From contig OZ250160.1 of the NCBI GenBank assembly GCA_965237835.1, forward strand, positions 2,530,146-2,594,145: DNA of 64,000 nucleotides, written 5' to 3'. The position numbers and the translations under genes were made by a program. The stretch is from Candidatus Poribacteria bacterium (GTDB lineage Bacteria > Poribacteria > WGA-4E > WGA-3G). This document shows positions 3,601-58,694 of this stretch, in pieces. The notes below the pieces were generated by a model. The model was not told the DNA's origin. It saw only the letters and a program-made list of their open reading frames with translations, and did not search any database. Position 1 is the stretch's first letter; each line of letters begins with the position of its first letter.

Positions 3601-4932
3601 ATGAAAAAAAAGTATAACTGTTACTGTGTTCTACTCCTTTTTGTTGTAATTTTCTCTTCGTGCGCCTTCCGAACCGAGCAACCGACTAATTTGGATATGT
3701 TAAGTGCTGTTGAAAACGCATTCGTTGATATAGCAACCAATAGTAAGCCTGCAATAGTCGGTGTTTTGGCATTAAATTCAGATAGAGGACAAAGTCGGTG
3801 GGGGTCTGGGTTCTTTTTTAAAGAAGATGGCTACATTTTAACAAATGACCATATCGTCCACGGGGGTGAACGTTTCAGGGTCAGGTTGTTAGATGGGAGC
3901 GAACTTGAGGCTAAATTGGTTGGAACGGATATTGTCACAGATGTTGGTGTTCTAAAGGTTGAGAGTGAGCAGAAGTTTCCATTTCTCCCGTTAGCCGATT
4001 CTGAGAAGGTGCGGGTAGGGCAGTTTGCTATTGCCATCGGTAATCCTTTTCGACTTGAATATACTGTAACTACTGGGGTTGTGAGCGGTACAGGACGTTC
4101 TGTTCTTGGTGGATTGCGCTTTATTCGGTACCAAAACTTCATTCAGACAGATGCGTGGATAAATACCGGTAGCAGCGGGGGGCCTCTGCTAAATATATAT
4201 GGAGAAGTGATCGGTATCAACGCCTTAATTCGGAAGATTGAAGATACACCTGATCCAGTGAAGGCGGGGGCTGGATTTGCGATCCCCAGCAACCTTGTTG
4301 ATAATATTGGTAGTCAACTGATTGCAAACGGCAAAGTTATCCGTGGTTATCTTGGTATTAGGATGGAGGAGGTAGCAAACGGCATACGCATCGAAAGAGT
4401 GGGAATAGACACACCTGCGGACCATGCAGGTTTAGAGAGGCGTGACGTTATCATTGAATACAATGGGAAGAAGGTACAAAAATCACTTGAATTCCAGATG
4501 CTCATTGCGGAATCACAGGTTGGTAAAGAATCTGTCATCAAGGTATTGCGGCATGGGCAAGAAAGAACTTTCAGTGTGACAATTGTTGAGATGCCATCGG
4601 AATTGGTAGGGATACCAATTGAAGATGAATCTGTTTCATGGAAAACACTTGGATTAGCAGTACGTAAGTTAGAAAGGTATGATTTTCAAAGATATCATTA
4701 CCTAACAGATGAAGATCGTGGTGTTATCGTTGAAAGGGTTAAGGATAACGCGCCAGGATTCAAGGCGAAAATTCCCCAAGGCGCGCTTATCGTTGCTATT
4801 AATGGGAAAGAAATCTCTGATGTTCAAACCTTTGAGGCACTGCTTCAGGCTGAACGAGATGCAGTGGAACTTATGGTCGAGATTAAGAGTAGTCACGGCA
4901 CAGAAACATTGAAAGTGCTTTTAGAGAAATAA
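3601..4932 (+). CDS. Second HtrA/DegP-family serine protease paralog (lipoprotein-type signal)
   Basis: ILTNDHIV, DVGVLKV, GSSGGPLL. Signal FSSCAF. PDZ-like C-terminus. Confidence 0.85.
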   Translation: MKKKYNCYCVLLLFVVIFSSCAFRTEQPTNLDMLSAVENAFVDIATNSKPAIVGVLALNSDRGQSRWGSGFFFKEDGYILTNDHIVHGGERFRVRLLDGSELEAKLVGTDIVTDVGVLKVESEQKFPFLPLADSEKVRVGQFAIAIGNPFRLEYTVTTGVVSGTGRSVLGGLRFIRYQNFIQTDAWINTGSSGGPLLNIYGEVIGINALIRKIEDTPDPVKAGAGFAIPSNLVDNIGSQLIANGKVIRGYLGIRMEEVANGIRIERVGIDTPADHAGLERRDVIIEYNGKKVQKSLEFQMLIAESQVGKESVIKVLRHGQERTFSVTIVEMPSELVGIPIEDESVSWKTLGLAVRKLERYDFQRYHYLTDEDRGVIVERVKDNAPGFKAKIPQGALIVAINGKEISDVQTFEALLQAERDAVELMVEIKSSHGTETLKVLLEK

Positions 4933-4997
4933 TGGCTGTATAAGTGAGTTTTCTACATAGATTATCCTCTTTTAATTGAAAGTGGATACTGACAACG

Positions 4998-9499: not shown

Positions 9500-10636
9500 T
9501 TACTGCATAGTGAAGATAACGCCTAAAGCTTCATTTGGAGTTTGAATTAATTTTTCGCATGCGTCTGCGGCTTGATCAATTGGCACAATATCTGTAATCA
9601 ACGGCTGCACCTTAATCTTACCGTCCGATATCAATCGTAACGCCAGTTCTAAGTTGCGTTGTGTTGGCCACGGCACAAACACCGGCGGATAATCTGCTCC
9701 GTGTTCATAATCCTCATCGTGGTATCCCGGTCCGGTTCTCGCCGCGCTGATAACATCCACATTCCCAAGTCCCGCCGCAAAACCGTGCGTAATACTTGCC
9801 CCGCCAACAATAACAATCCGTCCCATTTTGTGCGTGTCCGGTGCTGTTTTCAACATTGCGCAGATCTGTTGAAAAGCACTCGTAGCATCCCCACCAAAGG
9901 CGATAATCCCGCAATCCATCCCATATCCTCTGGTGAATTCCTTCGCAATCGGAATCGGGTCTGTTTCAGAGACGTTTATTGCCAAATCAATGCCCGCGTT
10001 TTCAGCAATTCCTATCCGCAAAGGCAGCTGATCTAAACCGATCACATACGCACCAGCAGTTTTGGCAACTTGACTCGCAAATTGTCCGAGGACACCTAAT
10101 CCTGCAATGACAACATTTTCGCCGATACGGATACGTCCGCGTTGCACAGCGTGCAATGCTGTCGCCGCAAGGTGAATGCATGCCGCTTCTTCAGCCTTGA
10201 CATTATCAGGAATCTTAGCGCATAAGTTATGCGGCACACAAGCATACGTAGCGTGCAGAGCATAACCACCGCCCATACCTGCAACCCTATCGCCAATCTC
10301 AAACTCGTCGCAATCTCCTTCTTTACCGATGACAACGCCGGCATTAGTATATCCGAACGAATGCTTCTGTGTTTCGGAACCTGGATTTTCGCGTCTTCGC
10401 TTTATACCACCAAGTTCTGTGCCGGGACTAACCATTGAAGCGTGAACTTCAATCAGTAACTGTCCGTGTTTCGGTGCAGGTGTTTCCTGCTCCTCTGTCA
10501 AGATGCGACCCGCATCATTTCTCATCACAACTTTTCTTGTTTTACTCATAAATGCTTCCTCAGATTCGTCATACAAACTCAATTTTCCTTTTATATTAGG
10601 ATTTACGCAATATCCATTTTTAGAGACGAGACTCAA
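9500..10636 (-). CDS. Zinc-type alcohol dehydrogenase-like / MDR superfamily oxidoreductase
   Basis: GroES-like N-domain followed by a Rossmann motif AGLGVLGQFASQVAKTAGAYVIG. Confidence 0.7.
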   Translation of the reverse strand: MSLVSKNGYCVNPNIKGKLSLYDESEEAFMSKTRKVVMRNDAGRILTEEQETPAPKHGQLLIEVHASMVSPGTELGGIKRRRENPGSETQKHSFGYTNAGVVIGKEGDCDEFEIGDRVAGMGGGYALHATYACVPHNLCAKIPDNVKAEEAACIHLAATALHAVQRGRIRIGENVVIAGLGVLGQFASQVAKTAGAYVIGLDQLPLRIGIAENAGIDLAINVSETDPIPIAKEFTRGYGMDCGIIAFGGDATSAFQQICAMLKTAPDTHKMGRIVIVGGASITHGFAAGLGNVDVISAARTGPGYHDEDYEHGADYPPVFVPWPTQRNLELALRLISDGKIKVQPLITDIVPIDQAADACEKLIQTPNEALGVIFTMQ

Positions 10637-10910
10637 TATTTTTCATACTATGCACCCTTTCCGACCTAATACTGTGTCTCTATATTGTGAAAGGTGCCAT
10701 ATACCACTGTTTGGTCAATTCATGTCGGACTTTTGCGTAAATCCTATTATATAAGGAGTTTCAACTCTGGCTGTATTTTATTCTATTTTCCATTTGTTGT
10801 CAAATCTACTATGGATATTCAGTATCGTTAGGGATATGTGTATTGGTTAAATTATCCATGTATATCGCCGTATAAATCAATATTATCAAAAAAATATACG
10901 ATTACATGTC

Positions 10911-10929
10911 GGAATTGTCCCCAAATCTA
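10911..10929 (+). promoter_or_regulatory. Conserved upstream motif cGGAATTGTCCC-N-AAATCTA (candidate ECF-type promoter or operator)
   Basis: The same motif occurs at 14799-14819, 19611-19629 and 24121-24140, each directly upstream of a cassette gene (sigma or TPR-X). Confidence 0.35.
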
Positions 10930-10940
10930 CGTCATTATCA

Positions 10941-11712
10941 ATGAAGACAGTTAAAAATTTTTCTTGGAAGAGGGAAATCGAGGATGGTGCGCTGCATCGT
11001 CGGTTTTTGGAAACAGGCAGCGAAGCAGCACTGCGTTTGCTTATGCAGAAGTACTATAAGCCAATTTGTAGTCACGTTTTCGCGATCTTGAAAGATCATC
11101 AAGATGCAGATGAAATCACAAATGAAACCTTCCTCAAAGCCTTCAATAAGAGGGAAACGATCAAGTATCCTGATAAACTCGTGAGTTGGTTATATAAGAC
11201 CGCGAAAAATGCGGCGATTGAGCGATTAAGAGCCAGACAACGAGATGTTCACCAGATGCTCGATTTAGTCTCTCTTGATAATTTGGATGCTGAAAGAGAA
11301 GCTGCAGCCGCATCAATATTTGCGGCACAGCAGATTGAGACTGATCAATACTTGTTGACAAGTCTGCTGCGACTTCATAACGGAAAAGGATCGTGAGGTT
11401 GTAGAATACTTATTAGATGACCTAAAGCCGAAGCAGATTGCTGAAGTGATAGACTCCACACCGGAAGCAGTTCAGAAAAGATGGGAACGGATACTCAAGT
11501 GGTTAAGCCCGATTGCTCACCGATTAGACGAACTGCTTAATAACCTTCCGCCTCAAGAACGGAAAATAATGGAACGGTATTTAGATAATCAACCTCTTGA
11601 AGAGATTAGTGAAAAATTAGGTATCTCCCCGACTAATGTTAAAGCATGCGTGAAACGTGTGATGAAGCAGTGGAAGAAAACCACAAGGCAAACGCCACGA
11701 AACGGAGGATAA
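10941..11712 (+). pseudogene. ECF (sigma-70 family) sigma factor, split by an apparent +1 frameshift near 11375-11380
   Basis: Region 2 (ETFLKAF, KLVSWLYKTAKNAAIERLRARQR) lies in frame 0 and ends at 11396. A region-4 HTH (EISEKLGISPTNVKACVKRV) continues in another frame to 11712. Deleting one A in the A-run restores LRLHNGKDREVVEYLLDDL. Confidence 0.6.
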
Positions 11713-11713
11713 T

Positions 11714-12472
11714 ATGCTTCGCGACATCTGGACAAATAAATGGTTTATCGGTGGCTTTGGTTTTCTGATTGTTTTCGCGGTGCTGTGTTACTTCTGGTAC
11801 CAACACGATATTGCGTCATTCCAACAACAGTTATCGGCTACCGGTGATATTGTCTTTCAAGGGGATCTATCTCAAAAGGCACAAAAAACCGTTCAAACAG
11901 ACGTGCCGCTGATAGAATCTCTTGAATCTGTAGAAAATAGGTCTGAATCTGTTAGGGATACGTCGGTTCCCACAGAGAAGACAACAGAAAAAACCGACAC
12001 GTTTGAGATAAACACAAATTTAACTGCGGATGCTCCTATCTCTCCCTTTGGATTTGGTGCGTATCCTGAAGTTCCCGCTGATTATCCGTTTCAGGAACAA
12101 CTTTGGGATAATGCCACGCCAGAGCATGAGTTGTTAGTCCGAGTCGAAGTTAAGTTATGGAAACAAGGCACACAAACTAAAGGCTCTATGTTTGATCCTA
12201 ATAATGGTCTCATTTATCCATCTATTCCTGGTGTCCTTTACGTGCAATGGCGTTACATTGAAGAAGGAGACCCAGATTTAGTAGGGCAACGGTATGCCGG
12301 TAGAGTAAGCGGTGACGGAGATACTGCTAAAAAGTGGCAATCCTTATACCTTACTGACCGTATGTTTGAACGCACAGACGTAACGCATGACACTGAGGCA
12401 TCAGGTATAAAGATTTATGAGTACCCAGACGGGGGTATAGACCCCTACAAATTCCTCGATTTAACGAGGTAA
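11714..12472 (+). CDS. Cassette protein X1: N-terminal signal-anchor TM helix plus a conserved ~150-aa C-terminal domain of unknown function
   Basis: TM segment WFIGGFGFLIVFAVLCYFWY. The C-domain SPFGFGAYPEVPADYPFQE...YEYPDGGIDPYKFLDL is shared with 15254-16051, 19810-20568 and 24258-25397. Confidence 0.7.
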   Translation: MLRDIWTNKWFIGGFGFLIVFAVLCYFWYQHDIASFQQQLSATGDIVFQGDLSQKAQKTVQTDVPLIESLESVENRSESVRDTSVPTEKTTEKTDTFEINTNLTADAPISPFGFGAYPEVPADYPFQEQLWDNATPEHELLVRVEVKLWKQGTQTKGSMFDPNNGLIYPSIPGVLYVQWRYIEEGDPDLVGQRYAGRVSGDGDTAKKWQSLYLTDRMFERTDVTHDTEASGIKIYEYPDGGIDPYKFLDLTR

Positions 12473-12482
12473 GGAAAATAAA

Positions 12483-13256
12483 ATGAAATTGTATCGTGTT
12501 CTTTTACTAATTTTCTGTTCAGGCATCCTCTTCGTTGGTGTCGTTAGTGATATTTCAGCAGCAGGTTTTGATCGTGACGGTCCCTATGAAGCTTCTGTAG
12601 ATGCCCGTCGCTTTGGCGGAAATGAAAACAGATTACATGTCAATTTGTATGCAAGGGCTTCTAGTACTGACCGAGCGAGAAATGGTTACTTGAATATATT
12701 TCTTAAGATAACTAACGGATGGTCAGTAGATCCGGCTGTTACCCCTGTTGATAGTCACGTCTGGCTTTGGGATCACCGTGATTTTCAGTTTGAAGAAAAC
12801 GGAGGCTATGTTTATGCATATGCTTCTGGACAAGACACAGGGAGAGCCTGGTATACCGCCTACACTGACGACACTGCGGAGCCGATGCCTCCTCCTGATC
12901 CTCCACCCGCCACCAACCCCACCAACCCCACCAACCCCGAACCACAATTGGGCATATCCCCCGTAGATCCAGATGACACTCCTTATCCCGGCGAAGCACA
13001 TGAGTACAGACTTGTCACAGATGCACCTTATTACTATGTGTATTGGTATGTGAAGGCACCTTGGGAGACAAGTGAACGCGGATCATATATAGGGAGTGAC
13101 TCAGGTGACGGCACGACAACTGAAGCAACATTCAGTTACACGTTCCCGAGCGGTGCAATGCATACTGGAGATTTTCTGATAACAGCGGTCATTTACCGGT
13201 GGTCAGATATGTCTGAGTATGAGGAGACCTATACTGCGACTGTGTTGTTAGATTAA
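12483..13256 (+). CDS. Cassette protein Y1: secreted protein with a variable N-domain, a Pro-rich linker and a conserved C-terminal domain
   Basis: Signal peptide. Linker PMPPPDPPPATNPTNPTNPEPQLGISPVDPDD. The C-domain (...YYYVYWYVKAPWETSERG...YEETYTATVLLD) is shared with 16066-16836 and 20579-21358. RBS-coupled 10 bp after X1. Confidence 0.7.
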   Translation: MKLYRVLLLIFCSGILFVGVVSDISAAGFDRDGPYEASVDARRFGGNENRLHVNLYARASSTDRARNGYLNIFLKITNGWSVDPAVTPVDSHVWLWDHRDFQFEENGGYVYAYASGQDTGRAWYTAYTDDTAEPMPPPDPPPATNPTNPTNPEPQLGISPVDPDDTPYPGEAHEYRLVTDAPYYYVYWYVKAPWETSERGSYIGSDSGDGTTTEATFSYTFPSGAMHTGDFLITAVIYRWSDMSEYEETYTATVLLD

Positions 13257-13292
13257 AAATTATGTCACATTTATCAGTATGAATAACAATAG

Positions 13293-13330
13293 ACAGGTAA
13301 CTTTGCGGTTACCTGTCTTCTCTTTTTATC
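13293..13330 (+). terminator. Rho-independent terminator after Y1 (copies follow Y2 and Y3)
   Basis: acaggtaac-tttgc-ggttacctgt followed by cttctctttttat. Confidence 0.6.
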
Positions 13331-13338
13331 AGAAAAAG

Positions 13339-13367
13339 TTGACATGTAACATGTATACGCGTATATT
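13339..13367 (+). promoter_or_regulatory. Near-consensus sigma-70 promoter upstream of the WD40 gene
   Basis: TTGACA, 17-nt spacer, TATATT. Identical in the duplicated intergenic segments at 16919 and about 21437. Confidence 0.5.
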
Positions 13368-13544
13368 ATCTGAACCAGGATTTTCAGGATTATCAGATTT
13401 TCAGGATTATAGATACTTCCTCAAATGAACAAGGACTTTGTTGAGAAATATAGATTTGAAGATAATACTAGCAGAAGATAGCCATCCATCTAAAAGCATA
13501 CTAATCCTGATAATCCCATAATCCTGTCCATCCTGGTTCAGACA
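13368..13544. repeat. ~177-bp element bounded by ~40-bp imperfect inverted repeats (tctgaaccaggatt...aatcctggttcaga), MITE-like family 2, forming the 5' leader of the WD40 gene
   Basis: Left arm tctgaaccaggattttcaggattatcag, right arm ctaatcctgataatcccataatcctgtccatcctggttcaga. A complete copy lies at 34728-34852 and partial copies near 31716, 52640 and 55385. Confidence 0.5.
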
Positions 13545-13643
13545 ATCCGAGATTTAGACAGAACCTTTGACATTTAATCCAACACATAGTAGAATAAACA
13601 CAACGTTAATTGGTATTAGAACAGCACATAGGAGAACACACCC

Positions 13644-14753
13644 ATGAGAAACAGATTGTTTTCAATTTTTACAGCACTGTTTGTAGCACTCCCATTTATG
13701 ACCTGCAGTCTCCCATCAGGTTCATTGGAGGATCCGCTGCATGATCCACAGCAAGCCCCGCAGCAAGAGCATTTACCCGAAGGCGCGAAAGGGCGCATCA
13801 AGAAAGACAGGATCAATGATATAGCGTATTCACCAGACGGCACAAAGCTCGCTGTAGCAGGTGGTAGCGGTATTTGGCTCTACGATGCACAGACAGGTCA
13901 TGAACTTGTCCAATTCGCAGGACATACCGGTAAAGTCCACAACGTGGCATTTAGTCCGGATGGAAAGACTATCGTAAGTGCCGGTACCAGTTACGATCGG
14001 ACCATTCGTATATGGGATGTGAACACGGGAAGAAACCTACGAACATTCAAATATCAGGTCTTTGACGTTGCGTTTAGTCCGGATGGAAAGACGATCATAA
14101 GTGGCAGTCATGACAAAAACCTCTACTTATTGGATGCGGACACAGGTAAACTCCTACGCACCCTCTCTGGGCATACGGATTTTGTCTGGTACGTGGCGTT
14201 TAGTCCGGACGGAAAAACTATTGCAAGTCGCAGTCAAGACCAGACCATTTGTCTGTGGGATGCGGACATAGGTAAACTCCTACAAACAATCACATGGCAT
14301 TCGCATCTGCCCAAGCATCCTCTCAAGCATCCTCTCAATACCGTAATTTTTAGTCCTGATGGAAAGATGATCGCAAGTGTTGGTGATGACCAGACTATTT
14401 GGCTGTGGGATGTGAACACGGGAAAACAACTACGAACAATCGCAAGAAACACGTCTCCTCATCGTAAGAACTTGGCATTTAGTCCGGATGGAAGCATGAT
14501 TGCATGTAACAATTGGAAGGATATTGATCTGTGGGATGTGAACACGGGAAAACTCCTACGAACACTCACAGGGTATCGGGAGAATAACCCACCGCGTCGG
14601 GACCGGTTCAGCGGACATATTTTAGGATCCCCCTGGGTCTTTATGGTGGTGTTCAGTCCGGATGGAAAGACTATCGCAGGTGCCAGTGGGCATGGCGTCC
14701 ATCTGTGGGATGTGAACACGGGATACCTCCAAAAACTCATCAGTGGTTTTTGA
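13644..14753 (+). CDS. WD40 repeat beta-propeller protein with N-terminal secretion/lipoprotein-like signal (WD40-1)
   Basis: Repeated [21 protein letters not shown] WD40 units. Signal [17 protein letters not shown]. Confidence 0.85.
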   Translation: MRNRLFSIFTALFVALPFMTCSLPSGSLEDPLHDPQQAPQQEHLPEGAKGRIKKDRINDIAYSPDGTKLAVAGGSGIWLYDAQTGHELVQFAGHTGKVHNVAFSPDGKTIVSAGTSYDRTIRIWDVNTGRNLRTFKYQVFDVAFSPDGKTIISGSHDKNLYLLDADTGKLLRTLSGHTDFVWYVAFSPDGKTIASRSQDQTICLWDADIGKLLQTITWHSHLPKHPLKHPLNTVIFSPDGKMIASVGDDQTIWLWDVNTGKQLRTIARNTSPHRKNLAFSPDGSMIACNNWKDIDLWDVNTGKLLRTLTGYRENNPPRRDRFSGHILGSPWVFMVVFSPDGKTIAGASGHGVHLWDVNTGYLQKLISGF

Positions 14754-14935
14754 TACGACCGCGCTGCGGTCTGTTGTAAAATGCCAATTTTCTGTTAGCG
14801 GAATTGTCCCTTAAATCTATCTATAAGAGAAAACTCTCATAGAATAATAGCATCTGTTTGCAAGCATTCCTATCTGGTTTTGTGAATTAAATTCTAAACG
14901 TCCCTGTTAATTTCTACTTGGTAAGGAGAAAAATC

Positions 14936-16051
14936 ATGAAATTTGTCAACTTCTGTCTGTTTACTACTTTTGTTCTTACAACAGTAATGCAAATCGGATG
15001 TTTGTCCGGTGGTGCGATGGGTACTGCGGAAAAATTAAGTGAGACGAAAGACTATCGCGGTGCATTAGAAGTCTATCAAAATGTTGTAGATACCAAACCC
15101 GGTACTGCTGACGCGCGCGCAGCACAACTCGCAATAGGTGAACTCTACATTGAGCATATACATTAACCCGAACAAGGGATTGAAACTTATGAAGCGGTCA
15201 TTGCTGAAGCACCCACAAGCGATGAAGCTGCAGAGGCACACTATCGTCTCGGGATGCACGCCTATCGCCAAAAAGACTATGACGCAGCGCAAACCCAATT
15301 TGGTACTATTGTTAACCATTTTTCGCATCTGGAATTGAGTCACAACGCACAACTGATGTCGGCAAAAAGTTATGAGGATGGGCAAAAATTTGAACAAGCT
15401 GTAGAAGTTTATGATAATTTTGCGAACCGCAACCCACAGAGTAAACGCGCTGCACAAGCCCTCGCCAATAAAGCACGAATACAACGCAAATTCCTTAAAG
15501 ATGATGATGAAGCGATACGTACCCTGCAATTATTAGTCATAAAATACGGCAAAATTAAGAGCGCAGAATCATACGTTAAAGAAGCTAAAAAAGTATTAAT
15601 TGAATTCAATGTCTCTCCTTTTGGATTTGGTGCATATCCTGAAGTTCCCGCCGATTATCCATTTCAGGAGCGACTTTGGGATAATGCCACGCCAGAGAAT
15701 GAGTTGTTAATCCGAGTTCAGATTAAGTTATGGAATCAAGGAACACGAACTAAAGGTGCAGCGTTTAGTAGTAATGGTCTCGTTTATCCCACAATTTCTG
15801 GTGTCCTTTACGTAGAATGGCGTTACATTGAAGAAGGTGACCCAGATTTAGTAGGGCGACGGTATGCCGGTACAGTAAGCGGTGACGGAGAGACTGCTAA
15901 AAAGTGGCGATCTTTATACCTTACTGACCGTATGTTTGAGCGCACAGACGTAACGCATGACACTAAGGTATCAGGTATAAAGATTTATGAGTATCCAGAT
16001 GGAGGAATAGACCCCTACAAATTCCTCGATTTACCGAGGCAAGGAGAATAA
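14936..16051 (+). pseudogene. Cassette protein X2: TPR lipoprotein carrying the conserved X C-domain, interrupted by an in-frame TAA at 15164-15166
   Basis: The intact paralog at 24258-25397 reads CAA (Q) where this copy reads TAA. Lipobox MQIGC. TPR-like helices. The downstream ORF 15254-16051 carries the X C-domain. Confidence 0.6.
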
Positions 16052-16065
16052 AATGAAACTGTCCA

Positions 16066-16836
16066 GTGTTTTTTTACTTTTCATGCGTTGTCCTCTTCGT
16101 TGTTGCAGTTGGTGATATTTCAGCAGCTGTTGGACAGGACGGTCCCTATACTGCTGAAGCATACGGCTATCGCGTGGGCGGAATTAATAATGACAGATTA
16201 AATGTCAGTTTGTCTGGTAGGGCTAGTAGTACTGTGTTTGGAAGTGACGGTTATTATAAAATAGAGTTATTTAAAGAACTACCCAGCGGATGGAGTATAA
16301 TTGCTGAACAGGACGAGGTTGATACACATGGTGGTCAAATTGATGGCCACTTCTATGTAAACCTAGACTTAGATCTTCCTAGGGAAGAATACGCATGCTT
16401 TATTGACGTTGATGTTAGTGGTAGAGCGACAAATGGAAGGTACTGTTTTGCGGATGCTGATGAATATGTGGGACCGATGCCTCCACCTCCCCCTAATCCT
16501 CAACTCATCATCGACCCCGAACCACAAGTGGGCATATCCTCCGTAGATCCAGATGACACTCCTTATCCGGGGAACACATACGAGTTCAGACTTATCACAG
16601 ATGTCCATTATTATTGGGTGGACTGGTATGTGAAAGCACCCTGGGAGACAAGTGAAAGGGGAACACATATAGAAGGTCAATTAGGAGATGGCGAGACAAC
16701 TGAATCTACATTCAGTTACACGTTCCCGAGCGGTGCAATGCATACTGGAGATTTTCTGATAACAGCGGTCATTTACCGGTGGTCAGATATGTCTGAGTAT
16801 GAGGAGACCTATACTGCGACTGTGTTGTTAGATTAA
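16066..16836 (+). CDS. Cassette protein Y2 (secreted; variable N-domain, conserved C-domain); the native ATG at 16053 is out of frame through a T7 homopolymer, so the ORF opens at a GTG
   Basis: The ATG at 16053 reads into a TGA. A T7 run at 16068-16074 sits in the signal-peptide codons. The C-terminal 100 aa are almost identical to Y1 and Y3. Confidence 0.55.
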   Translation: MFFYFSCVVLFVVAVGDISAAVGQDGPYTAEAYGYRVGGINNDRLNVSLSGRASSTVFGSDGYYKIELFKELPSGWSIIAEQDEVDTHGGQIDGHFYVNLDLDLPREEYACFIDVDVSGRATNGRYCFADADEYVGPMPPPPPNPQLIIDPEPQVGISSVDPDDTPYPGNTYEFRLITDVHYYWVDWYVKAPWETSERGTHIEGQLGDGETTESTFSYTFPSGAMHTGDFLITAVIYRWSDMSEYEETYTATVLLD

Positions 16837-17223
16837 AAATTATGTCACATTTATCAGTATGAATAACAATAGACAGGTAACTTTGCGGTTACCTGTCTTC
16901 TCTTTTTATCAGAAAAAGTTGACATGTAACATGTATACGCGTATATTATCTGAACCAGGATTTTCAGGATTATCAGATTTTCAGGATTATAGATACTTCC
17001 TCAAATGAACAAGGACTTTGTTGAGAAATATAGATTTGAAGATAATACTAGCAGAAGATAGCCATCCATCTAAAAGCATACTAATCCTGATAATCCCATA
17101 ATCCTGTCCATCCTGGTTCAGACAATCCGAGATTTAGACAGAACCTTTGACATTTAATCCAACACATAGTAGAATAAACACAACGTTAATTGGTATTAGA
17201 ACAGCACATAGGAGAACACACCC

Positions 17224-18333
17224 ATGAGAAACAGATTGTTTTCAATTTTTACAGCACTGTTTGTAGCACTCCCATTTATGACCTGCAGTCTCCCATCAGG
17301 TTCATTGGAGGATCCGCTGCATGATCCACAGCAAGCCCCGCAGCAAGAGCATTTACCCGAAGGCGCGAAAGGGCGCATCAAGAAAGACAGGATCAATGAT
17401 ATAGCGTATTCACCAGACGGCACGAAGCTCGCGGTGGCAGGTGGTAGCGGTATTTGGCTCTATGATGCACAGACAGGTCATGAACTTGTCCAATTCGCAG
17501 GACATACCGGTAAAGTCCACAACGTGGCATTTAGTCCGGATGGAAAGACTATCGTAAGTGCCGGTACCAGTTACGATCGGACCATTCGTATATGGGATGT
17601 GAACACGGGAAGAAACCTACGAACATTCAAGTATCAGGTCTTTGACGTTGCGTTTAGTCCGGATGGAAAGACGATCATAAGTGGCAGTCATGACAAAAAC
17701 CTCTACTTATTGGATGCGGACACAGGTAAACTCCTACGCACCCTCTCTGGGCATACGGATTTTGTCTGGTACGTGGCGTTTAGTCCGGACGGAAAAACTA
17801 TCGCAAGTCGCAGTCAGGACAAGACCATTTGTCTGTGGGATGCGGACATAGGTAAACTCCTACAAACAATCACATGGCATTCGCATCTGCCCAAGCATCC
17901 TCACAAGCATCCTCTCAATACCGTAATTTTTAGTCCTGATGGAAAGATGATCGCAAGTGTTGGTGATGACCAGACTATTTGGCTGTGGGATGTGAACACG
18001 GGAAAACAACTACGAACAATCGCAAGAAACACGTCTCCTTATCGTAAGAACTTGGCATTTAGTCCGGATGGAAGCATGATTGCATGTAACAATTGGAAGG
18101 ATATTGATCTGTGGGATGTGAACACGGGAAAACAACTACGAACACTCACAGGGTATCGGGAGAATAACCCATCGCATCGGGACCGGTTCAGCGGACATAT
18201 TTTAGGAAACCCCAGCATCTTTACGGTGGTGTTTAGTCCGGATGGAAAGACTATCGCAGGTGCCAATAGGCGTGGCGTCCATCTGTGGGATGTGAACACG
18301 GGGTACCTCCGAAAACTCATCAGTGGTTTTTGA
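17224..18333 (+). CDS. WD40 repeat lipoprotein-like protein (WD40-2), near-identical to WD40-1
   Basis: 369 aa with only a few substitutions relative to 13644-14753. The upstream 387 bp is identical to 13257-13643. Confidence 0.85.
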
Positions 18334-18351
18334 TACGACCGCGCTGCGGTA

Positions 18352-18579
18352 TTAGGTATTTAGAACAGCACAAAAGGAGAACACACCCATGAAAAATAGC
18401 ACGAAACCAACTTTGTTGACATTTCCAACGCAAACCCTCCTCTTTGAGCCATTCCCAGATCGTTGAATCAGAAGATGAATACCCGTTTTCTCTGTAAACG
18501 CAGTTTGCAATCGTCCCAGTGTCCATACCTCAAATGGATAACCGAGACTACGCGGTTTTTGCAACGCTAAATCTATCAT
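18352..18579 (-). pseudogene. Remnant of an IS630-family transposase N-terminal HTH region
   Basis: [24 protein letters not shown]...RSGNGSKRR resembles the winged-HTH region of IS630/Tc1 transposases. Only ~75 aa remain. Confidence 0.35.
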
Positions 18580-19640
18580 ACCATATTAACTTGATTAGAA
18601 GTCTTTTGATATAGCACACGGTTGCGAGGCACGGGGACCTCGCGCTACAGATCGGGTTAATTTGGTATCAGTTGACCGCGCACCTCCGTTGAATGAATAC
18701 GCGGTTTACCGCTTTTCGGTTTATCAGCAGGTTTTCCTTTGATACCTTTTTCGTTCACGCAGCAGATATACTTGATTTGAAACCCGCTTGTTTTGCTGCT
18801 TGGGCAGCTGTCAGGGTGTTGTCATCAATCATGCTGACAATCAACCTGGCTCTCTGCACAGTCCGATAACATCTCCTCTATTTATAGCCCTCCGATCACT
18901 GTGTATTTATACCATTCTAAGTGATTATGTTGTGTTAGTTCGTAGGTTCGGTAGAGCGGTAACGAAACCATAAGTGTCAATTTAGTAGTCTTCCAACCCC
19001 GGTAGGTGCGGTTTCCTAACCGCACTATAACCGTCACCAAGTCTAACCGTAGATAAAGGGATACCACTCTCCATTGATAGAATACGAGGCTTCACTAGGT
19101 ATCTCATCACCATTAGCGAGTCCGGAAATGGGTTGGGTTAGTAAACAGACAGCTGCTAGTGCAAAAAGTATGTAGGTGCAAAAGGGGGCATGATATGAAA
19201 AAAGTTGGAAATGTTGAATGTCCACGGTTGAACGTAGGTGTGTAATTATCGGATATTTGCTATCTGGAATACGCAGGGCTGCATTTTTTGACACTGGGAA
19301 GTAATATGGGGGGGCTGGTTGTTTTGAAAAAGTCGTTGCGAGGCGTTTTTGACAGGAATTCGTTATATCGTAATGTTGGTCTGTTCAGATGTGCGATACG
19401 CGCATATGTGCAGCAGTCGCACACGTGCGCAGCACTCGGTGTTCATCTTGCCATATTATTAAAAGGTGTCAGGGATATCGTGCCCTAATATTTTATCCAT
19501 CTTTCAACGAACATTCTAACAGTATCGTTAGGGATATGTGTATTGGTTAAATTATCCATGTATATCGCCGTATAAATCAATATTATCAAAAAAATATACG
19601 ATTACATGTCGGAATTGTCCCCAAATCTACGTCATTATCA

Positions 19641-19808
19641 ATGAAGACAGTTAAAAATTTTTATAGGGAACGGTATTTAGACAATCAACCTCTCAAAGAG
19701 ATTAGTGAAAAATTGGGTATTTCTCTGACTAATGTTGAAGTATGCGTGAAACGTGTGATAAAGCAGTGGAAGAAATCCACAAGGCAAACGCCACGAAACG
19801 GAGGATAA
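19641..19808 (+). pseudogene. In-frame internal-deletion remnant of the ECF sigma gene (55-aa ORF retaining only the region-4 HTH)
   Basis: The first 7 codons (MKTVKNF) are fused to YRERYLDNQPLKEISEKLGISLTNVEVCVKRV. The upstream 140 bp is identical to 10800-10940. Confidence 0.5.
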
Positions 19809-19809
19809 T

Positions 19810-20568
19810 ATGCTTCGCGACATTTGGACAAATAAATGGTTTATCGGTGGCTTCGGTTTTCTGATTGTTTTCTCGGTGCTGTGTTACTTCTGGTACCAAC
19901 ACGATATAGCGTCATTCCAACAACAGTTATCGGCTACCGGTGATATTGTCTTTCAAGGGGATCTATCTCAAAAGGCACAAAAAACCGTTCAAACAGACGT
20001 GCCGCTGATAGAATCTCTTGAATCTGTAGAAAATAGGTCTGAATCTGTTAGGGATACGTCGGTTCCCACAGAGAAGACAACAGAAAAAACCGACACGTTT
20101 GAGATAAACACAAAATTAACTGCGGATGCTCCTACTTCTCCCTTTGGATTTGGTGCATATCCTGAAGTTCCCGCTGATTATCCGTTTCAGGAACGACTTT
20201 GGGATAACGCCACGCCAGAGCATGAGTTGTTAGTCCGAGTCGAAGTTAAGTTATGGAAACAAGGCACACAAACTAAAGGCTCTATGTTTGATACTAATAA
20301 TGGTCTCATTTATCCGACTATTCCTGGTGTCCTTTACGTGAAATGGCGTTACATTGAAGAAGGAGACCCAGATTTAGTAGGGCGAAGGTATGCCGGTAGA
20401 GTAAGCGGTGACGGAGATACTGCTAAAAAGTGGCAATCCTTATACCTTACTGACCGTATGTTTGAACGCACAGACGTAACGCATGACACTGAGGCATCAG
20501 GTATAAAGATTTATGAGTACCCAGACGGGGGTATAGACCCCTACAAATTCCTCGATTTAACGAGGTAA
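19810..20568 (+). CDS. Cassette protein X3 (TM anchor plus conserved X C-domain), near-identical to X1
   Basis: 252 aa with a handful of substitutions relative to 11714-12472. Confidence 0.7.
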   Translation: MLRDIWTNKWFIGGFGFLIVFSVLCYFWYQHDIASFQQQLSATGDIVFQGDLSQKAQKTVQTDVPLIESLESVENRSESVRDTSVPTEKTTEKTDTFEINTKLTADAPTSPFGFGAYPEVPADYPFQERLWDNATPEHELLVRVEVKLWKQGTQTKGSMFDTNNGLIYPTIPGVLYVKWRYIEEGDPDLVGRRYAGRVSGDGDTAKKWQSLYLTDRMFERTDVTHDTEASGIKIYEYPDGGIDPYKFLDLTR

Positions 20569-20578
20569 GGAAAATAAA

Positions 20579-21358
20579 ATGAAATTGTATCGTGTTCTTT
20601 TACTTTTTTTCTTTTCATGCGCTATCCTCTTCGTTGGTGCAGTTAGTGATATTTCAGCAGATGCTCAAGTTAACGGTCCCTATACTGCTGAAGCATACGT
20701 TTATCGTGTTAACACAGCTAATGTCATATTGACCGCTAAAGCTAGTAGTACGCCGCGGGCAAAAAACGGTAAGTATAAATTAGTTGCAAATAAAGATTCA
20801 GATTTAAACAGACAGGTCGAAACTTGGGATCCACTTGAAGAACAAACCCACCTGGATACACATGGTGCTCCAATTGATGGTGAATTCTCCGAAGAGCTAA
20901 AAAGAAATTATCCTTCGACAGAATACGGATACCAGGCTAAATCACTTGTTGATGGACAATTGACAGATGGAGCTTTTCGTGCTGCTTTTGCTGAAGATAA
21001 AGTGGGCGAGATACCTATTCTTGAACCCACCCCCGTCCCTCAACCACAATTGGGCATATCCCCCGTAGATCCAGATGACACTCCTTATCCCGGCGAAGCA
21101 CATGAGTACAGACTTGTCACAGAGGCACCTTATTACTATGTGAATTGGTATGTGAAGGCACCTTGGGAGACAAGTGAACGCGGATCATATATAGGGAGTG
21201 ACTCAGGTGACGGCACGACAACTGAATCTACATTCAGTTACACGTTCCCGAGCGGTGCAATGCATACTGGAGATTTTCTGATAACAGCGGTCATTTACCG
21301 GTGGTCAGATATGTCTGAGTATGAGGAGACTTATACTGCGACTGTGTCATTAGATTAA
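20579..21358 (+). CDS. Cassette protein Y3 (secreted; divergent N-domain, conserved C-domain)
   Basis: Signal peptide. N-domain only distantly similar to Y1 and Y2 (DGPYTAEAY.YRV...ASST). C-terminal ~105 aa conserved. Confidence 0.7.
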   Translation: MKLYRVLLLFFFSCAILFVGAVSDISADAQVNGPYTAEAYVYRVNTANVILTAKASSTPRAKNGKYKLVANKDSDLNRQVETWDPLEEQTHLDTHGAPIDGEFSEELKRNYPSTEYGYQAKSLVDGQLTDGAFRAAFAEDKVGEIPILEPTPVPQPQLGISPVDPDDTPYPGEAHEYRLVTEAPYYYVNWYVKAPWETSERGSYIGSDSGDGTTTESTFSYTFPSGAMHTGDFLITAVIYRWSDMSEYEETYTATVSLD

Positions 21359-21768
21359 AATTACGTCGCATTTATCATTGTGAATAACAACAGACAGGTA
21401 TCCTTGAGGTTACCTGTCTTCTCTTTTTATCAGAAAAAGTTGACATGTAACATGTATACGCGTATATTATCTGAACCAGGATTCTCAAGATTACCAGATT
21501 TTCAGGATTATAGATACTTCCTCAAATGAACAAGGACTTTGTCGAGAAATATAGATTTGAAGATAATACTAACTAGCAGAAGATAGCCATCCATCTAAAA
21601 GCATACTAATCCTGTCCATCCTGGTTCAGACAATCCGAGATTCAGACAGAACCTTTGACATTTAATCCAACATATAGTAGAATAAACGCAACATTAAAAT
21701 GATTTATATTTAGCCCGCGTCTTTCTATCCAGATAGGTATTTAGCACAGCACACAGGAGAACACACCC

Positions 21769-22917
21769 ATGAGAAACAAATTGTTTTCAATTTTGACAGC
21801 ACTGTTTGTAGCACTCCCATTTATGACCTGCAGTCTTCCGCCAGGTTCACTGGAGGAACCGCTACATGATCCACAGCAGGAACCGCAGCAGAAACCGCAG
21901 CAAGAGCATTTACCCAATGGCGTGAAAGTGCCCCCCGGGAGAGTATGGGTTATGGATGTAAAATTTTCACCCGATGGCACATGTCTCGCGGTGGCGGGTG
22001 GCATCGGCATTTTGCTTTACGATACACAGACTTATGACAAACCGGACCTACTTAAAGGGCATACGGGTTATATATGGTGCATAGCGTTTCGTCCGGATGG
22101 AAAGGTGCTCGCAAGTGCAGGTCAGGACCGGACTGTCCGTTTGTGGGATGTGAACACGAGACAACAAATCAGAACATTTGGAATAAACTTGTATCCTACG
22201 TCAAACATAACATTTAGTCCGGATGGCAAGACACTCGCAAGCGCAACTGGAGGTAATAATACGAAGGATGTTATGAACGTCTATCTATGGGATGCAGACA
22301 CAGGTAAACGCCTACGCACACTCTCTGGGCATACGAATATAGTCAACGATGTGTCGTTTCGTCCGGATGGAAATATGCTCGCAAGTGCGTGTGACGACCA
22401 AACCGTCCGTCTGTGGGATGTGGAGACGGGACAACATATCAGAACACTATCTGGGCATACGAAGATGGTCGAGAGCGTTGCATTTAGTCCGGATGGAAAT
22501 ATGCTCGTAAGTGGAGGTGGGTATCATAATGCTGTCGCTCTGTGGAATGCGAACACGGGACAACAAATCAGAGCACTCACTATCAATGCACACTTGGAAC
22601 AACAAATCAATGTCCACATGGAAAAATATAGCAGACACATAGGCGCAAAAGGGGGGAGCAAGATTAGTGGAGAAGATGTGGCGTTCAGTCCGGATGGAAA
22701 CACTATCGCAAGTACCGGTCCTTCTTCCATCCATCTGTGGGATATGGGCTCGGGACAACACCACAGAATACTCCACAACGGAAAGTATCCTGATATAGCA
22801 ACAGATGTAGCGTTCAGTCCGGATGGAAACACTATCGCGTGTGTAGGTTGGTATGAAGCACATGTGTGGGATGTGGAGACGGGAAAACTCATCCGAATAC
22901 TCATGGGCAAACATTGA
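21769..22917 (+). CDS. WD40 repeat lipoprotein-like protein (WD40-3, divergent paralog)
   Basis: Same signal and leader as the other WD40 genes. WD40 units FSPDG....LWDV. Confidence 0.85.
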   Translation: MRNKLFSILTALFVALPFMTCSLPPGSLEEPLHDPQQEPQQKPQQEHLPNGVKVPPGRVWVMDVKFSPDGTCLAVAGGIGILLYDTQTYDKPDLLKGHTGYIWCIAFRPDGKVLASAGQDRTVRLWDVNTRQQIRTFGINLYPTSNITFSPDGKTLASATGGNNTKDVMNVYLWDADTGKRLRTLSGHTNIVNDVSFRPDGNMLASACDDQTVRLWDVETGQHIRTLSGHTKMVESVAFSPDGNMLVSGGGYHNAVALWNANTGQQIRALTINAHLEQQINVHMEKYSRHIGAKGGSKISGEDVAFSPDGNTIASTGPSSIHLWDMGSGQHHRILHNGKYPDIATDVAFSPDGNTIACVGWYEAHVWDVETGKLIRILMGKH

Positions 22918-22971
22918 TACTACCGTTCTGTGGTATTAGGTATTTAGAACAGCACACAGGAGAACACACCC

Positions 22972-24075
22972 ATGAGAAACAGATTGTTTTCAATTTTCAC
23001 AGCACTGTTTATAAAACTAACATTTCTGAGCTGCAGTCTCCCACCCGGTTCATTGGAGGATCCGCTGCATGATCCACAGCAAGCCCCGCAGCAAGAGCAT
23101 TTACCCGAAGGCGCGAAAGGGCGCATCAAGAAAGACAGGATCCATGATATAGCGTATTCACCAGATGGCACGAAGCTAGCGGTGGCAGGTGGTAGCGGTA
23201 TTTGGCTCTACGATGCACAGACAGGTCATGAACTTGTCCAATTCGCAGGACATACCTATACAGTCCACAACGTGGCATTTCGTCCAGACGGAAAGACTAT
23301 CGTAAGTGCCGCTATCGGTTACGATCAGACCATTCGTATATGGGATGTGAACACGGGAAGAAACCTACGAACATTCAGGTATGTGGCCTTTGACGTCGCG
23401 TTTAGCCCGGATGGAAAGATGATCGTAAGTGGCGGTCATGACAAAAACCTCTATTTACTGGATGCGGACACAGGTAAACTCGTACGCACCCTCTCTGGGC
23501 ATACGGATTTTGTCTGGAGCGTGGCGTTTAGTCCGGATGGAAAAACTATCGCAAGTCGCAGTCAGGACAAGACCATTCGTCTGTGGGATGCGAACACAGG
23601 AAAACTCCTGCGAACACTCACAATGGATACGCATCTGCCCAAGTATTTTCTCAATATCGTAATTTTTAGTCCTGATGGAAAAGTGATCGCAAGTGTTGGT
23701 AATGACCGGACCATTTGTCTGTGGGATGCTAACACGGGAAAACGCCTACGAACAATCGCAAGAAATACGACTCCTTTTCATAAAAACTTGGCATTTAGTC
23801 CGGATGGAAGCATGATCGCATGCAACAATTGGCTCGATATTGACCTATGGGATGTGAACAACGGAAAACTCCTACGAACACTCACAGGGTATAGGGAGAA
23901 TAACCCATCGCGTCGGGAGTGGAGGAGAGGACATATTGGACTTATAGGACCCCCCGGAATCTTTACGGTGGTGTTCAGTCCGGATGGAAAGACTATCGCA
24001 GGTGCCAGTGTGCATGGCGTCCATCTGTGGGATGTGAACACGGGGTACCTCCGAAAACTCATCAGTGGTTTTTGA
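22972..24075 (+). CDS. WD40 repeat lipoprotein-like protein (WD40-4)
   Basis: Closest to WD40-1 and WD40-2. The downstream 165 bp is identical to 14754-14917. Confidence 0.85.
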   Translation: MRNRLFSIFTALFIKLTFLSCSLPPGSLEDPLHDPQQAPQQEHLPEGAKGRIKKDRIHDIAYSPDGTKLAVAGGSGIWLYDAQTGHELVQFAGHTYTVHNVAFRPDGKTIVSAAIGYDQTIRIWDVNTGRNLRTFRYVAFDVAFSPDGKMIVSGGHDKNLYLLDADTGKLVRTLSGHTDFVWSVAFSPDGKTIASRSQDKTIRLWDANTGKLLRTLTMDTHLPKYFLNIVIFSPDGKVIASVGNDRTICLWDANTGKRLRTIARNTTPFHKNLAFSPDGSMIACNNWLDIDLWDVNNGKLLRTLTGYRENNPSRREWRRGHIGLIGPPGIFTVVFSPDGKTIAGASVHGVHLWDVNTGYLRKLISGF

Positions 24076-24257
24076 TACGACCGCGCTGCGGTCTGTTGTA
24101 AAATGCCAATTTTCTGTTAGCGGAATTGTCCCTTAAATCTATCTATAAGAGAAAACTCTCATAGAATAATAGCATCTGTTTGCAAGCATTCCTATCTGGT
24201 TTTGTGAATTAAATTCTAAACGTCCCTGTTAATTTCTACTTGGTAAGGAGAAAAATC

Positions 24258-25397
24258 ATGAAATTTGTCAACTTCTGTCTGTTTACTACTTTTGTTCTTA
24301 TAACAGTAATGCAAATCGGATGTTTGTCCGGTGGTGCGATGGGTACTGCGGAAAAATTAAGTGAGACGAAAGACTATCGCGGTGCATTAGAAGTCTATCA
24401 AAATGTTGTAGATACCAAACCCGGTACTGCTGACGCGCGCGCAGCACAACTCGCAATAGGTGAACTCTACATTGAGCATATACATCAACCCGAACAAGGG
24501 ATTGAAACTTATGAAGCGGTCATTGCTGAAGCACCCACAAGCGATGAAGCTGCAGAGGCACACTATCGTCTCGGGATGCACGCCTATCGCCAAAAAGACT
24601 ATGACGCAGCGCAAACCCAATTTGGTACTATTGTTAACCAATTTTCGCATCTGGAATTGAGTCACAACGCACAACTGATGTCGGCAAAAAGTTATGAGGA
24701 CGGGCAAAAATTTGAACAAGCTGTAGAAGTTTATGATAATTTTGCGAACCGCAACCCACAGAGTAAACGCGCTGCACAAGCCCTCGCCAATAAAGCGCGA
24801 ATACAACGCAAATTCCTTAAAGATGATGATGAAGCGATACGTACCCTGCAATCATTAGTCATAAAATACGGCAAAATTAAGAGCGCAGAATCATACGTTA
24901 AAGAAGCTAAAAAAGTATTAATTGAATTCAATGTCTCTCCTTTTGGATTTGGTGCATATCCTGAAGTTCCCGCCGATTATCCATTTCAGGAGCGACTTTG
25001 GGATAATGCCACGCCAGAGCATGAGTTGTTAGTCCGAGTCGAAGTTAAGTTATGGAATCAAGGAACACGAACTAAAGGTGCAGCGTTTAGTAGTAATGGT
25101 CTCGTTTATCCCACAATTTCTGGTGTCCTTTACGTAGAATGGCGTTACATTGAAGAAGGTGACCCAGATTTAGTAGGGCAACGGTATGCGGGACGTGTAA
25201 TGGGTGACGGAGATACTGCTAAAAAGTGGCGATCTTTATACCTTACTGACCGTATGTTTGAGCGCACAGACGTAACGCATGACACTGAGGTATCAGGTAT
25301 AAAGATTTATGAGTATCCAGATGGAGGAATAGACCCCTACAAATTCCTCGATTTACCGAGGTTTGATGTTGAATTGAGAGAAGGAGGCAAAAACTAA
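24258..25397 (+). CDS. Cassette protein X4: intact TPR lipoprotein fused to the conserved X C-domain
   Basis: RBS AAGGAG 7 nt upstream of the ATG at 24258. Lipobox IGC. TPR-like repeats. C-domain SPFGFGAYPEVPADYPFQER... Confidence 0.75.
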   Translation: MKFVNFCLFTTFVLITVMQIGCLSGGAMGTAEKLSETKDYRGALEVYQNVVDTKPGTADARAAQLAIGELYIEHIHQPEQGIETYEAVIAEAPTSDEAAEAHYRLGMHAYRQKDYDAAQTQFGTIVNQFSHLELSHNAQLMSAKSYEDGQKFEQAVEVYDNFANRNPQSKRAAQALANKARIQRKFLKDDDEAIRTLQSLVIKYGKIKSAESYVKEAKKVLIEFNVSPFGFGAYPEVPADYPFQERLWDNATPEHELLVRVEVKLWNQGTRTKGAAFSSNGLVYPTISGVLYVEWRYIEEGDPDLVGQRYAGRVMGDGDTAKKWRSLYLTDRMFERTDVTHDTEVSGIKIYEYPDGGIDPYKFLDLPRFDVELREGGKN

Positions 25398-25414
25398 ACG
25401 TCTCTGAAATTACA

Positions 25415-58561: not shown

Positions 58562-58594
58562 TAGGCACACTCCGTGTGCCATAAACCATATTCC

Positions 58595-58623
58595 TTGATA
58601 TTTTCTTCGGAATGTGCTATTAT
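58595..58623 (+). promoter_or_regulatory. Sigma-70-type promoter for the SIR2-NTPase operon
   Basis: TTGATA, 17 nt, TATTAT. Confidence 0.45.
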
Positions 58624-58694
58624 TTAAACAATCAATTGCCACGAATCTCCAGAGGATTTTCGCTGAGGACTTTTGTCATCATATCACTTTATAA

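Follow-up and report, generated by a model that had tools for sequence, protein, structure and literature searches.

Recombinational exchange of N-terminal domains between conserved flanks in a family of exported proteins from Candidatus Poribacteria

The Opa proteins of Neisseria are multi-locus, recombining and phase-variable adhesins that form outer-membrane beta-barrels with variable loops. In the Anaplasma Msp2/P44, Borrelia VlsE and Neisseria pilE/pilS systems, chimeras arise from a central variable region framed by conserved 5' and 3' recombination substrates, and a single expression site is served by an archive of promoterless cassettes. Here we report on a locus that recalls both arrangements, located in a stretch of 64,000 nucleotides of contig OZ250160.1 (positions 2,530,146 to 2,594,145; hereafter the window) from a metagenome-assembled genome of Candidatus Poribacteria, a sponge symbiont. 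Three genes of this locus, Y1, Y2 and Y3, encode proteins composed of a diverged N-terminal domain (N-domain, or head) and a conserved C-terminal domain (C-domain, or tail). As with Opa, several full-length paralogous loci are present per genome, and hypervariable segments are reshuffled between loci and strains via conserved flanks. Unlike Opa, the Y proteins are soluble-looking tandem immunoglobulin (Ig)-like proteins according to AlphaFold rather than beta-barrels, exchange a whole domain, and belong to a sponge symbiont, not to a pathogen facing antibodies. Opa and Msp2/VlsE are the closest mechanistic analogues of the Y locus, although it lacks the architecture that defines either of them. 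Among sponge symbionts, Poribacteria are a dominant and uncultured group, and the locus offers a strain-variable candidate for their recognition by host and phages, being an exported family whose heads are reshuffled by recombination.

The Y genes are part of an array of duplicated cassettes on the + strand (10.9-25.4 kb of the window), which runs in the order extracytoplasmic function (ECF) sigma, X1, Y1, W1, TPR-X2, Y2, W2, insertion sequence (IS) remnants, a copy of the sigma promoter, X3, Y3, W3, W4 and TPR-X4. All features of the array given below are on this strand unless stated otherwise. The three Y open reading frames (ORFs) called in an earlier note on this DNA were confirmed at 12483-13256 (Y1), 16066-16836 (Y2) and 20579-21358 (Y3). 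In Y1, a signal peptide (aa 1-26; 12483-12560) is followed by the N-domain (aa 27-134; 12561-12884), a Pro-rich disordered linker (aa 135-154; 12885-12944) and the C-domain (aa 155-257; 12945-13256). The Y1 N-domain, designated type A, is predicted to fold into a beta-sandwich of eight strands, in which one sheet face is variable and the loop at aa 81-89 is hypervariable; the C-domain, designated type alpha, is a conserved, predicted Ig-like beta-sandwich. Y2 (16053-16836, the ORF being read from GTG 16066) combines N-type B with C-type beta (N-domain 16126-16476, linker 16477-16524, C-domain 16525-16833), and Y3 combines N-type C with C-type alpha (signal peptide 20579-20659, N-domain 20660-21010, linker 21011-21046, C-domain 21047-21355).

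By pairwise codon alignment, Y1 and Y3 are 24% identical in the N-domain and 96% in the C-domain; the corresponding values are 34% and 82% for Y1 and Y2, and 36% and 81% for Y2 and Y3. When cassettes 1 and 3 were compared in 60-bp windows, identity was 93-100% over the X C-domain region, only 21-60% over 12546-12924, and back to 100% at 12954. Cassettes 1 and 2 share a perfect run of 716 bp (13128-13843 = 16708-17423) that runs from the final 43 codons of Y through the intergenic DNA into the beginning of the WD40 gene, with 52 mismatches in the 220 bp to its left. The N-domain DNA is therefore a diverged island within near-identical flanks, far beyond chance expectation. No second copy of the Y1 N-domain DNA (12562-12899) was detected in the window by self-blastn. 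The earlier note had described the last ~105 aa of the three proteins as almost identical, which is correct for Y1 and Y3 and does not extend to Y2, where the first ~60 C-domain codons are 75-88% identical at the DNA level and identity is complete only over the last 43 codons. The signal peptide that it had considered common to all three is damaged in Y2. Likewise, its derivation of the linker from short tandem repeats applies to Y1 only, in which Tandem Repeats Finder (TRF) located a repeat of period 9 at 12910-12938 (3.2 copies, 100% match, unit CCACCAACC); the linkers of Y2 and Y3 are Pro-rich and non-repetitive. The 9-bp repeat is present in three copies in Y1, two in three related strains and one in a paralog.

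Heads and tails were found in almost free combination. Separate clustering of the two domains revealed the pairings A-alpha, A-beta, A-gamma, B-beta, C-alpha and C-beta, with N-types A, B and C occurring on C-types alpha and beta in five of six combinations. Ten pairs of proteins are at least 93% identical in the C-domain yet at most 40% identical in the N-domain, and 11 pairs show the opposite, with an N-domain identity of at least 70% yet a C-domain identity of at most 85%. The same exchange is visible at fixed positions of syntenic loci from other genomes (denoted by L and a number), which are marked by methyltransferase, acetyltransferase and dehydrogenase genes upstream and ComEC downstream, and which carry three Y copies in the window, two in L001, and one each in L002 and L004. 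The slot behind the sigma remnant and X is occupied by C-alpha in the window, A'-gamma in L001 and C-beta in L039, and the alignment of the window with L001, 95.8% identical from W2 through X3, stops precisely where the Y3 signal peptide ends. Similarly, the slot with the broken Y2-type 5' end (see below) holds type B in the window and type C in L043. Common to all N-types are the invariant GATATTTCAGCAG (D-I-S-A), which terminates the signal peptide and forms the left recombination boundary, and ~45 conserved nt at the junction of linker and C-domain; in Y1 the right boundary corresponds to the first ~45 nt of the C-domain. One further sequence, L2Y, has a third breakpoint inside the C-domain, where it switches from alpha to beta. 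Since the breakpoints vary, recombination appears to be homologous and not site-specific. Together, these data show that the flanks evolve in concert and that an old, fast-evolving head domain is reshuffled by recombination. The mixing of N- and C-types, the slot swaps and the location of breakpoints in conserved DNA bear out the view of the earlier note that the N-domain is an exchangeable module moved by gene conversion between conserved flanks. Two of its terms had to be revised, however: the N-domains are not unalignable, instead being homologous and of one fold (38-sequence alignment; AlphaFold predicted local distance difference test (pLDDT) scores >90 across the N-domain) with a shared motif, GPY..A...R...NRLHV.L.A.AS, and the C-domain is not constant, as it too falls into exchangeable types (alpha, beta and gamma), which are as little as 55% identical.

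Mosaics and perfect repeats of this kind could in principle be chimeras of collapsed or mis-joined paralogous cassettes, all the more so as the source is metagenome-assembled and a 716-bp perfect repeat can mislead assemblers. Such an assembly artefact is very improbable, given that the architecture, the boundaries and the N x C mosaics recur in independent assemblies of other samples (L001, L002, L004, L039, L040-L043), including short-read contigs, and that the broken 5' end of Y2 is reproduced exactly in L043.

To what extent the heads diverge between strains is evident from orthologous comparisons. N-domains are 82-90% identical between strains and C-domains 93-99%. In three independent strain pairs, the ratio of nonsynonymous to synonymous substitution rates (dN/dS, or omega) of the N-domain was 1.57 for Y1 against its L001 orthologue, 1.52 for Y2 against P0022 and 1.10 for Y3 against P0023, as compared to about 0.2 (0.23) for the C-domain, 0.2-0.6 for X and 0.3-0.6 for the WD40 genes. 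Flanking housekeeping genes ranged from 0.07 to 0.28, and all cassette genes were higher (0.2-0.7). N-domain omega exceeds that of the housekeeping genes (Fisher p = 4e-9), of X (p = 3e-4) and of the C-domain (p = 0.04), and heads gain amino-acid changes about five times faster than tails. The elevated diversity of N-domains between strains is thus as the earlier note had anticipated; conservation of the N-domains, which it had named as evidence against its proposal, was not what we found. Along the N-domain strands, variable and conserved positions alternate, while the C-domain is conserved on both faces, a pattern consistent with a head whose core is preserved and whose surface is free to vary, and with a tail that has a constrained surface for interaction.

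The N-types themselves have diverged at synonymous sites as well. Synonymous divergence (dS) between N-types is 0.5-0.7 (rough values, as the alignment is poor at this distance) versus 0.04 between the C-domains of Y1 and Y3, and the same N-types recur in other Poribacteria genomes. This indicates that the N-types are old lineages and not products of recent hypermutation, so that the word hypervariable does not apply to them in the sense of rapid mutation. In the same vein, a diversity-generating retroelement (DGR) or similar device for targeted hypermutation of the N-domain would match the locus only in the general picture of a variable domain in a conserved protein, and we give it practically no credence. 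Among window ORFs of at least 120 aa, whose translations were read and only some of which were run against Pfam, none resembled a reverse transcriptase (RT), and the window holds no template-repeat copy of N-domain DNA. Of 88 substitutions, 47 involve A and every class is represented, transitions and transversions are in a ratio of 51:37, and codon positions are hit 32:33:23; moreover, dS between N-types is as elevated as dN. Hypermutation by a DGR was rejected for want of an RT-like ORF or template repeat in the window and of an adenine bias.

The explanation that we consider probable for the data as a whole is that recombining heads are carried on conserved tails and displayed by docking to the cell envelope. 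The diverged head between near-identical flanks is the product of homologous recombination or gene conversion, both among the cassette copies of one genome and from strain to strain. Conversion tracts end in two conserved stretches of DNA, one being the final 13 nt that encode the signal peptide and the other the ~45 nt that reach across the junction of linker and C-domain. Old head lineages (A, B, C and more) are thereby repeatedly re-paired with different C-domain types and moved between slots as the flanks are homogenised. Both Y copy number (1-3) and gene integrity vary among strains. The conserved C-domain would dock Y in the cell envelope, where X or TPR-X, encoded directly upstream of Y, would offer the most promising partner in its conserved novel-fold C-domain, and the variable head may be exposed to a variable external partner such as the host matrix or host cells, phages or other microbes.

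Several observations weigh against this explanation and bring in a rival one, in which the N-domain is a weakly constrained spacer of an eroding accessory locus, no selection for diversity acts, and the flanks look conserved as conversion cannot cross DNA that has already diverged. Pooled N-domain omega is 1.35, about 1 and not significantly above it (p = 0.24), and hydrophobic and polar N-domain codons (classes taken from distant homologues) have the same omega, neither being significantly >1; the diversifying selection that the earlier note had envisaged did not emerge. Part of the omega near 1 may also stem from patchy conversion from diverged paralogs. All cassette genes, as noted above, have a higher omega than the housekeeping genes, and several are broken. 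The sigma gene is split in the window by a +1 frameshift (1-nt insertion) near 11377; L002 carries a different 1-nt insertion, whereas L004 (8451-9230) has an intact orthologue of 259 aa. The genuine ATG of Y2, with a Shine-Dalgarno sequence, is at 16053 and out of frame. In TPR-X2, a TAA lies in frame at 15164-15166, a position at which TPR-X4, 96% identical to it, has CAA; TPR-X2 is probably a pseudogene, or else translated only from the internal ATG 15254 without a lipoprotein signal. In L044 and L046 (both at 4800-6400), the syntenic Y gene is destroyed at its 5' end: only the last ~165 codons are retained, and unrelated, frameshifted sequence stands in place of the upstream half. Gene finders call these remnants as C-domain-only proteins of 120-123 aa. 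In addition, of the 20 members of the Y1 protein cluster, 15 were listed, and 8 of these are ORFs of 102-132 aa with little beyond linker and C-domain. The C-domain-only remnants in other strains indicate that the system is dispensable and possibly decaying. Finally, strict co-variation of X and Y C-domain types is contradicted by the second cassette of L001, in which the X C-domain is 94% identical to that of X1 but the Y C-domain only 56% identical to that of Y1.

Because several genes of the locus are broken, the system is to be regarded as accessory and relaxed constraint stays a rival. We nevertheless hold it to be unlikely, though to be taken seriously. The N-domain fold and motif are retained across species saturated in dS, with pLDDT >90, and between such species N-domain dN (0.4-0.5) is lower than dS (0.8-1.0). 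N-domain frames are stop-free in all three Y genes, Y2 being disrupted only at its 5' start; the alternation of variable and conserved positions along the strands indicates a preserved core; and distinct N-types persist across different Poribacteria genomes. If the head were merely unconstrained, the locus would still be a clean case of concerted evolution with sharply bounded conversion tracts.

The lesion at the start of Y2 deserves attention in its own right. It is caused by the loss of 8 nt between two direct CTTTT repeats within the sequence for the signal peptide (16053-16090), which leaves GTG 16066 as the remaining start and a truncated signal peptide without charged n-region. Exactly the same broken 5' end is found in L043 (69-110), from another sample and in front of a different N-type. 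The shared lesion could represent a slippage-based OFF state or a shared pseudogene allele. In Opa, the frame is shifted by a pyrimidine repeat in the signal-peptide region, to which the deletion between CTTTT repeats in Y2 and L043 may be comparable, but Y has no multi-copy pentamer tract; there is no long tract in the CTTTT region, for which just two length states were seen.

On these grounds one might suspect programmed antigenic or phase variation of the Msp2, VlsE or pilE/pilS type, in which a single expressed Y copy would be rewritten from donors that are silent or phase-OFF, with Y2 as a silent donor and CTTTT slippage as an ON/OFF switch. A variable core between conserved flanks, the disabling of Y2 and L043 by one and the same 8-nt deletion while their ORFs are intact and their N-types differ, and the copy-number polymorphism of the linker repeat would all be in line with such a programme. 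The architecture of the locus is not: Y1 and Y3 are both complete, each with its own X, ribosome-binding site and upstream promoter copy, and copy number per locus is only 1-3, without any archive of truncated cassettes. Unlike Msp2, VlsE or pilE, the Y locus has no single expression site; only the start of Y2 is disabled, the copies are genes in their own operon context, and allele divergence looks evolutionary. Indeed, orthologous N-domains differ by 10-18% between strains and their dS matches that of the flanks, indicating turnover on an evolutionary scale and not within a lineage. With just two length states of the CTTTT region, we judge programmed variation to be improbable, and return to recombining heads as the preferred explanation.

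We further characterized the Y proteins by structure prediction and database searches. An AlphaFold model based on the 38-sequence alignment (mean pLDDT 84.6) consists of a signal-peptide helix, an eight-strand N-terminal sandwich with pLDDT >90, a linker with disordered residues 142-152 (pLDDT <50) and a C-terminal sandwich, both domains being predicted Ig-like sandwiches. Foldseek returned 49 PDB matches at E <=1e-3, and those listed were mostly tandem pairs of Ig- or FN3-like sandwiches, including C-terminal barrels of transglutaminases, RbmA (E = 3e-5), KIR and MG domains of alpha-2-macroglobulin. TM-scores of just 0.25-0.3, together with a sequence identity of 8-14%, point to generic fold similarity only. 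Like RbmA of Vibrio cholerae, Y would thus be a secreted protein of two linked beta-sandwich domains (as predicted for Y), but the two share no sequence family. Pfam hits of Y were mostly below threshold (NPCBM_assoc, CopC) or, for BatD and Big_3_2, marginally above the cut-off, and all were weak; no family was found in NCBIfam and no match among PDB sequences. Neither X nor Y matched PADLOC or PHROG models. The idea that the N-domain is an old duplicate of the C-domain was rejected (hhalign probability 0.2%).

A profile search of Y against 1.84 billion representative proteins yielded 306 clusters at 50% identity, most of them with the C-domain only. Of 194 retrieved proteins, 142 contain a single copy of the C-domain, 45 contain two and 7 contain three. 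The domain forms the C-terminus of 133 of them and is combined with a wide range of N-terminal parts, and just 51 also have a Y-type N-domain. All named protein matches and all 35 genome loci belong to Candidatus Poribacteria. The Y family thus comprises Sec-exported two-domain proteins seen only in Poribacteria, and full-text literature searches found no description of it. Poribacterial genomes are known to be rich in exported repeat, Ig-like and FN3 proteins (PMC3909097).

In ending many otherwise unrelated exported proteins (133/194) with a beta-sandwich of ~100 aa, the family resembles the C-terminal domains (CTD) of type IX secretion system (T9SS) substrates and PEP-CTERM proteins. Y does not match the T9SS models Por_Secre_tail/TIGR04183, however, and the Y C-domain differs from T9SS CTDs in that it also occurs internally and in two to three tandem copies, and in that it is paired one-to-one with an adjacent X instead of being served by one shared sorting machine. 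A 695-aa 'eukaryote-like' protein with cadherin and leucine-rich repeat (LRR) domains, encoded at 43169-45256, carries a T9SS-type sorting end (FlgD_ig, Por_Secre_tail), so that this genome also possesses a C-terminal sorting tag of another kind.

The pairing with X is a consistent feature of the family. A gene with an X C-domain ends at most 600 nt upstream of 27 of 34 Y C-domain genes, usually with a gap of 11-18 nt, and this arrangement holds even at identities of ~30%. X1 (11714-12472), which starts 1 nt past the sigma stop codon, is composed of an N-terminal membrane helix, a disordered spacer and a conserved alpha/beta C-domain of ~145 aa. The X profile gave 218 matches, in Poribacteria only. 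The C-domain of X was modelled with confidence and has no known fold match; against sequences of solved structures, X gave a chance-level match only (E = 0.067). X and Y thus constitute a conserved, undescribed gene pair with two domain families absent from Pfam. The order sigma-X-Y-W(-TPR-X) recurs across many Poribacteria genomes, with sigma-X-Y in L001-L022. In having a sigma gene, a translationally coupled single-pass membrane protein and a Sec-exported protein in one operon, the locus recalls rpoE-rseA-rseB. It differs in that the C-terminus of the sigma factor bears an additional sigma-4-like region, that no relationship exists between Y and RseB, and that X has no anti-sigma domain and no match in Pfam or NCBIfam. 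The membrane helix of X begins at residue ~9, and with only ~9 cytoplasmic residues X is not a classical anti-sigma factor.

The sigma gene (10941-11712) was identified by Pfam Sigma70_r2 and Sigma70_r4_2, NCBIfam sigma70-ECF, and DNA alignment to L002 and L004. Its intact 259-aa orthologues contain sigma-2 and two consecutive sigma-4-like helix-turn-helix (HTH) regions; this extension of the C-terminus is unusual and may have a self-regulatory role. A terminator-like hairpin stands behind each Y gene; that of Y1 (13291-13318) has a 12-bp stem and a T-run, and the same element recurs behind Y2 (16871-16898). Two strong sigma-70-like promoter matches (11/12 of the consensus) lie ahead of each W gene (13339-13595 for W1, recurring before W2 and W3). 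Transcription units hence appear to be sigma-X-Y, with W and TPR-X separate. The Y-W intergenic regions (13257-13643, 16837-17223 and 21359-21768) are highly conserved, and 100% identical between cassettes 1 and 2. They contain short repeats of 8-9 bp as candidate operator sites, namely CAGGATTTT at 13376-13414 and inverted TAATCCTGA at 13502-13526. No structured RNA was detected in 10000-26000 by Rfam at the gathering threshold.

A more far-reaching proposal, put forward tentatively and rather doubtful as a whole, is that the sigma-X-Y / W-TPR-X cassette is an undescribed envelope display system of Poribacteria that combines a docking tag, plug-in heads and copy switching. The Y C-domain would be the tag, recognised by the novel-fold C-domain of a cognate anchor, either X in the inner membrane or the TPR-X lipoprotein in the outer membrane. 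Many unrelated heads could be plugged in, the Y N-types being those most actively shuffled, under frequency-dependent selection by the sponge or by phages, and a self-regulated ECF sigma factor with duplicated sigma-4 region might, together with CTTTT slippage, turn copies on and off.

The remaining genes of the array encode WD40 and TPR proteins. W1 (13644-14753) is a WD40 beta-propeller with a lipoprotein-like signal, to which the propellers W2 (17224-18333), W4 (22972-24075) and the divergent W3 (21769-22917) are 96%, 83% and 44% identical, respectively. W3, compared to L002 12375-13502, displayed a dN/dS of 1.29 (75 nonsynonymous and 17 synonymous differences), well above the 0.3-0.6 of the other WD40 copies. 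TPR-X2 (14918-16051) is a TPR lipoprotein fused to an X-type C-domain. Its intact counterpart TPR-X4 (24240-25397) ends the array, with no Y gene after it. Cassette 3 is headed by a segment (19520-19805) in which a copy of the sigma promoter and start region (143 bp, 100% identical to 10820-10962) is joined to a remnant of the sigma 3' end, followed by X3 (19810-20568), which is 97% identical to X1. Between cassettes 2 and 3, remnants of an IS630-like transposase were found at 18320-18579 (- strand) and 19520-19662. Intact IS630/DDE_3, IS1595 and rve elements lie within the syntenic loci of L001, L002 and L039, which suggests that IS activity accompanies rearrangements.

Farther downstream, the window contains a defence island of low guanine-cytosine (GC) content (55457-63801; GC 0.35-0.42). 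Its products include a Type ISP/IIG-like methyltransferase-specificity protein of 1034 aa (Type_ISP_C, 318 bits), a SIR2_2 protein for which PADLOC gave ThsA/LmuA-like matches, and a NACHT-like protein of 1353 aa that matches PDC-M54A (609 bits), a candidate system.

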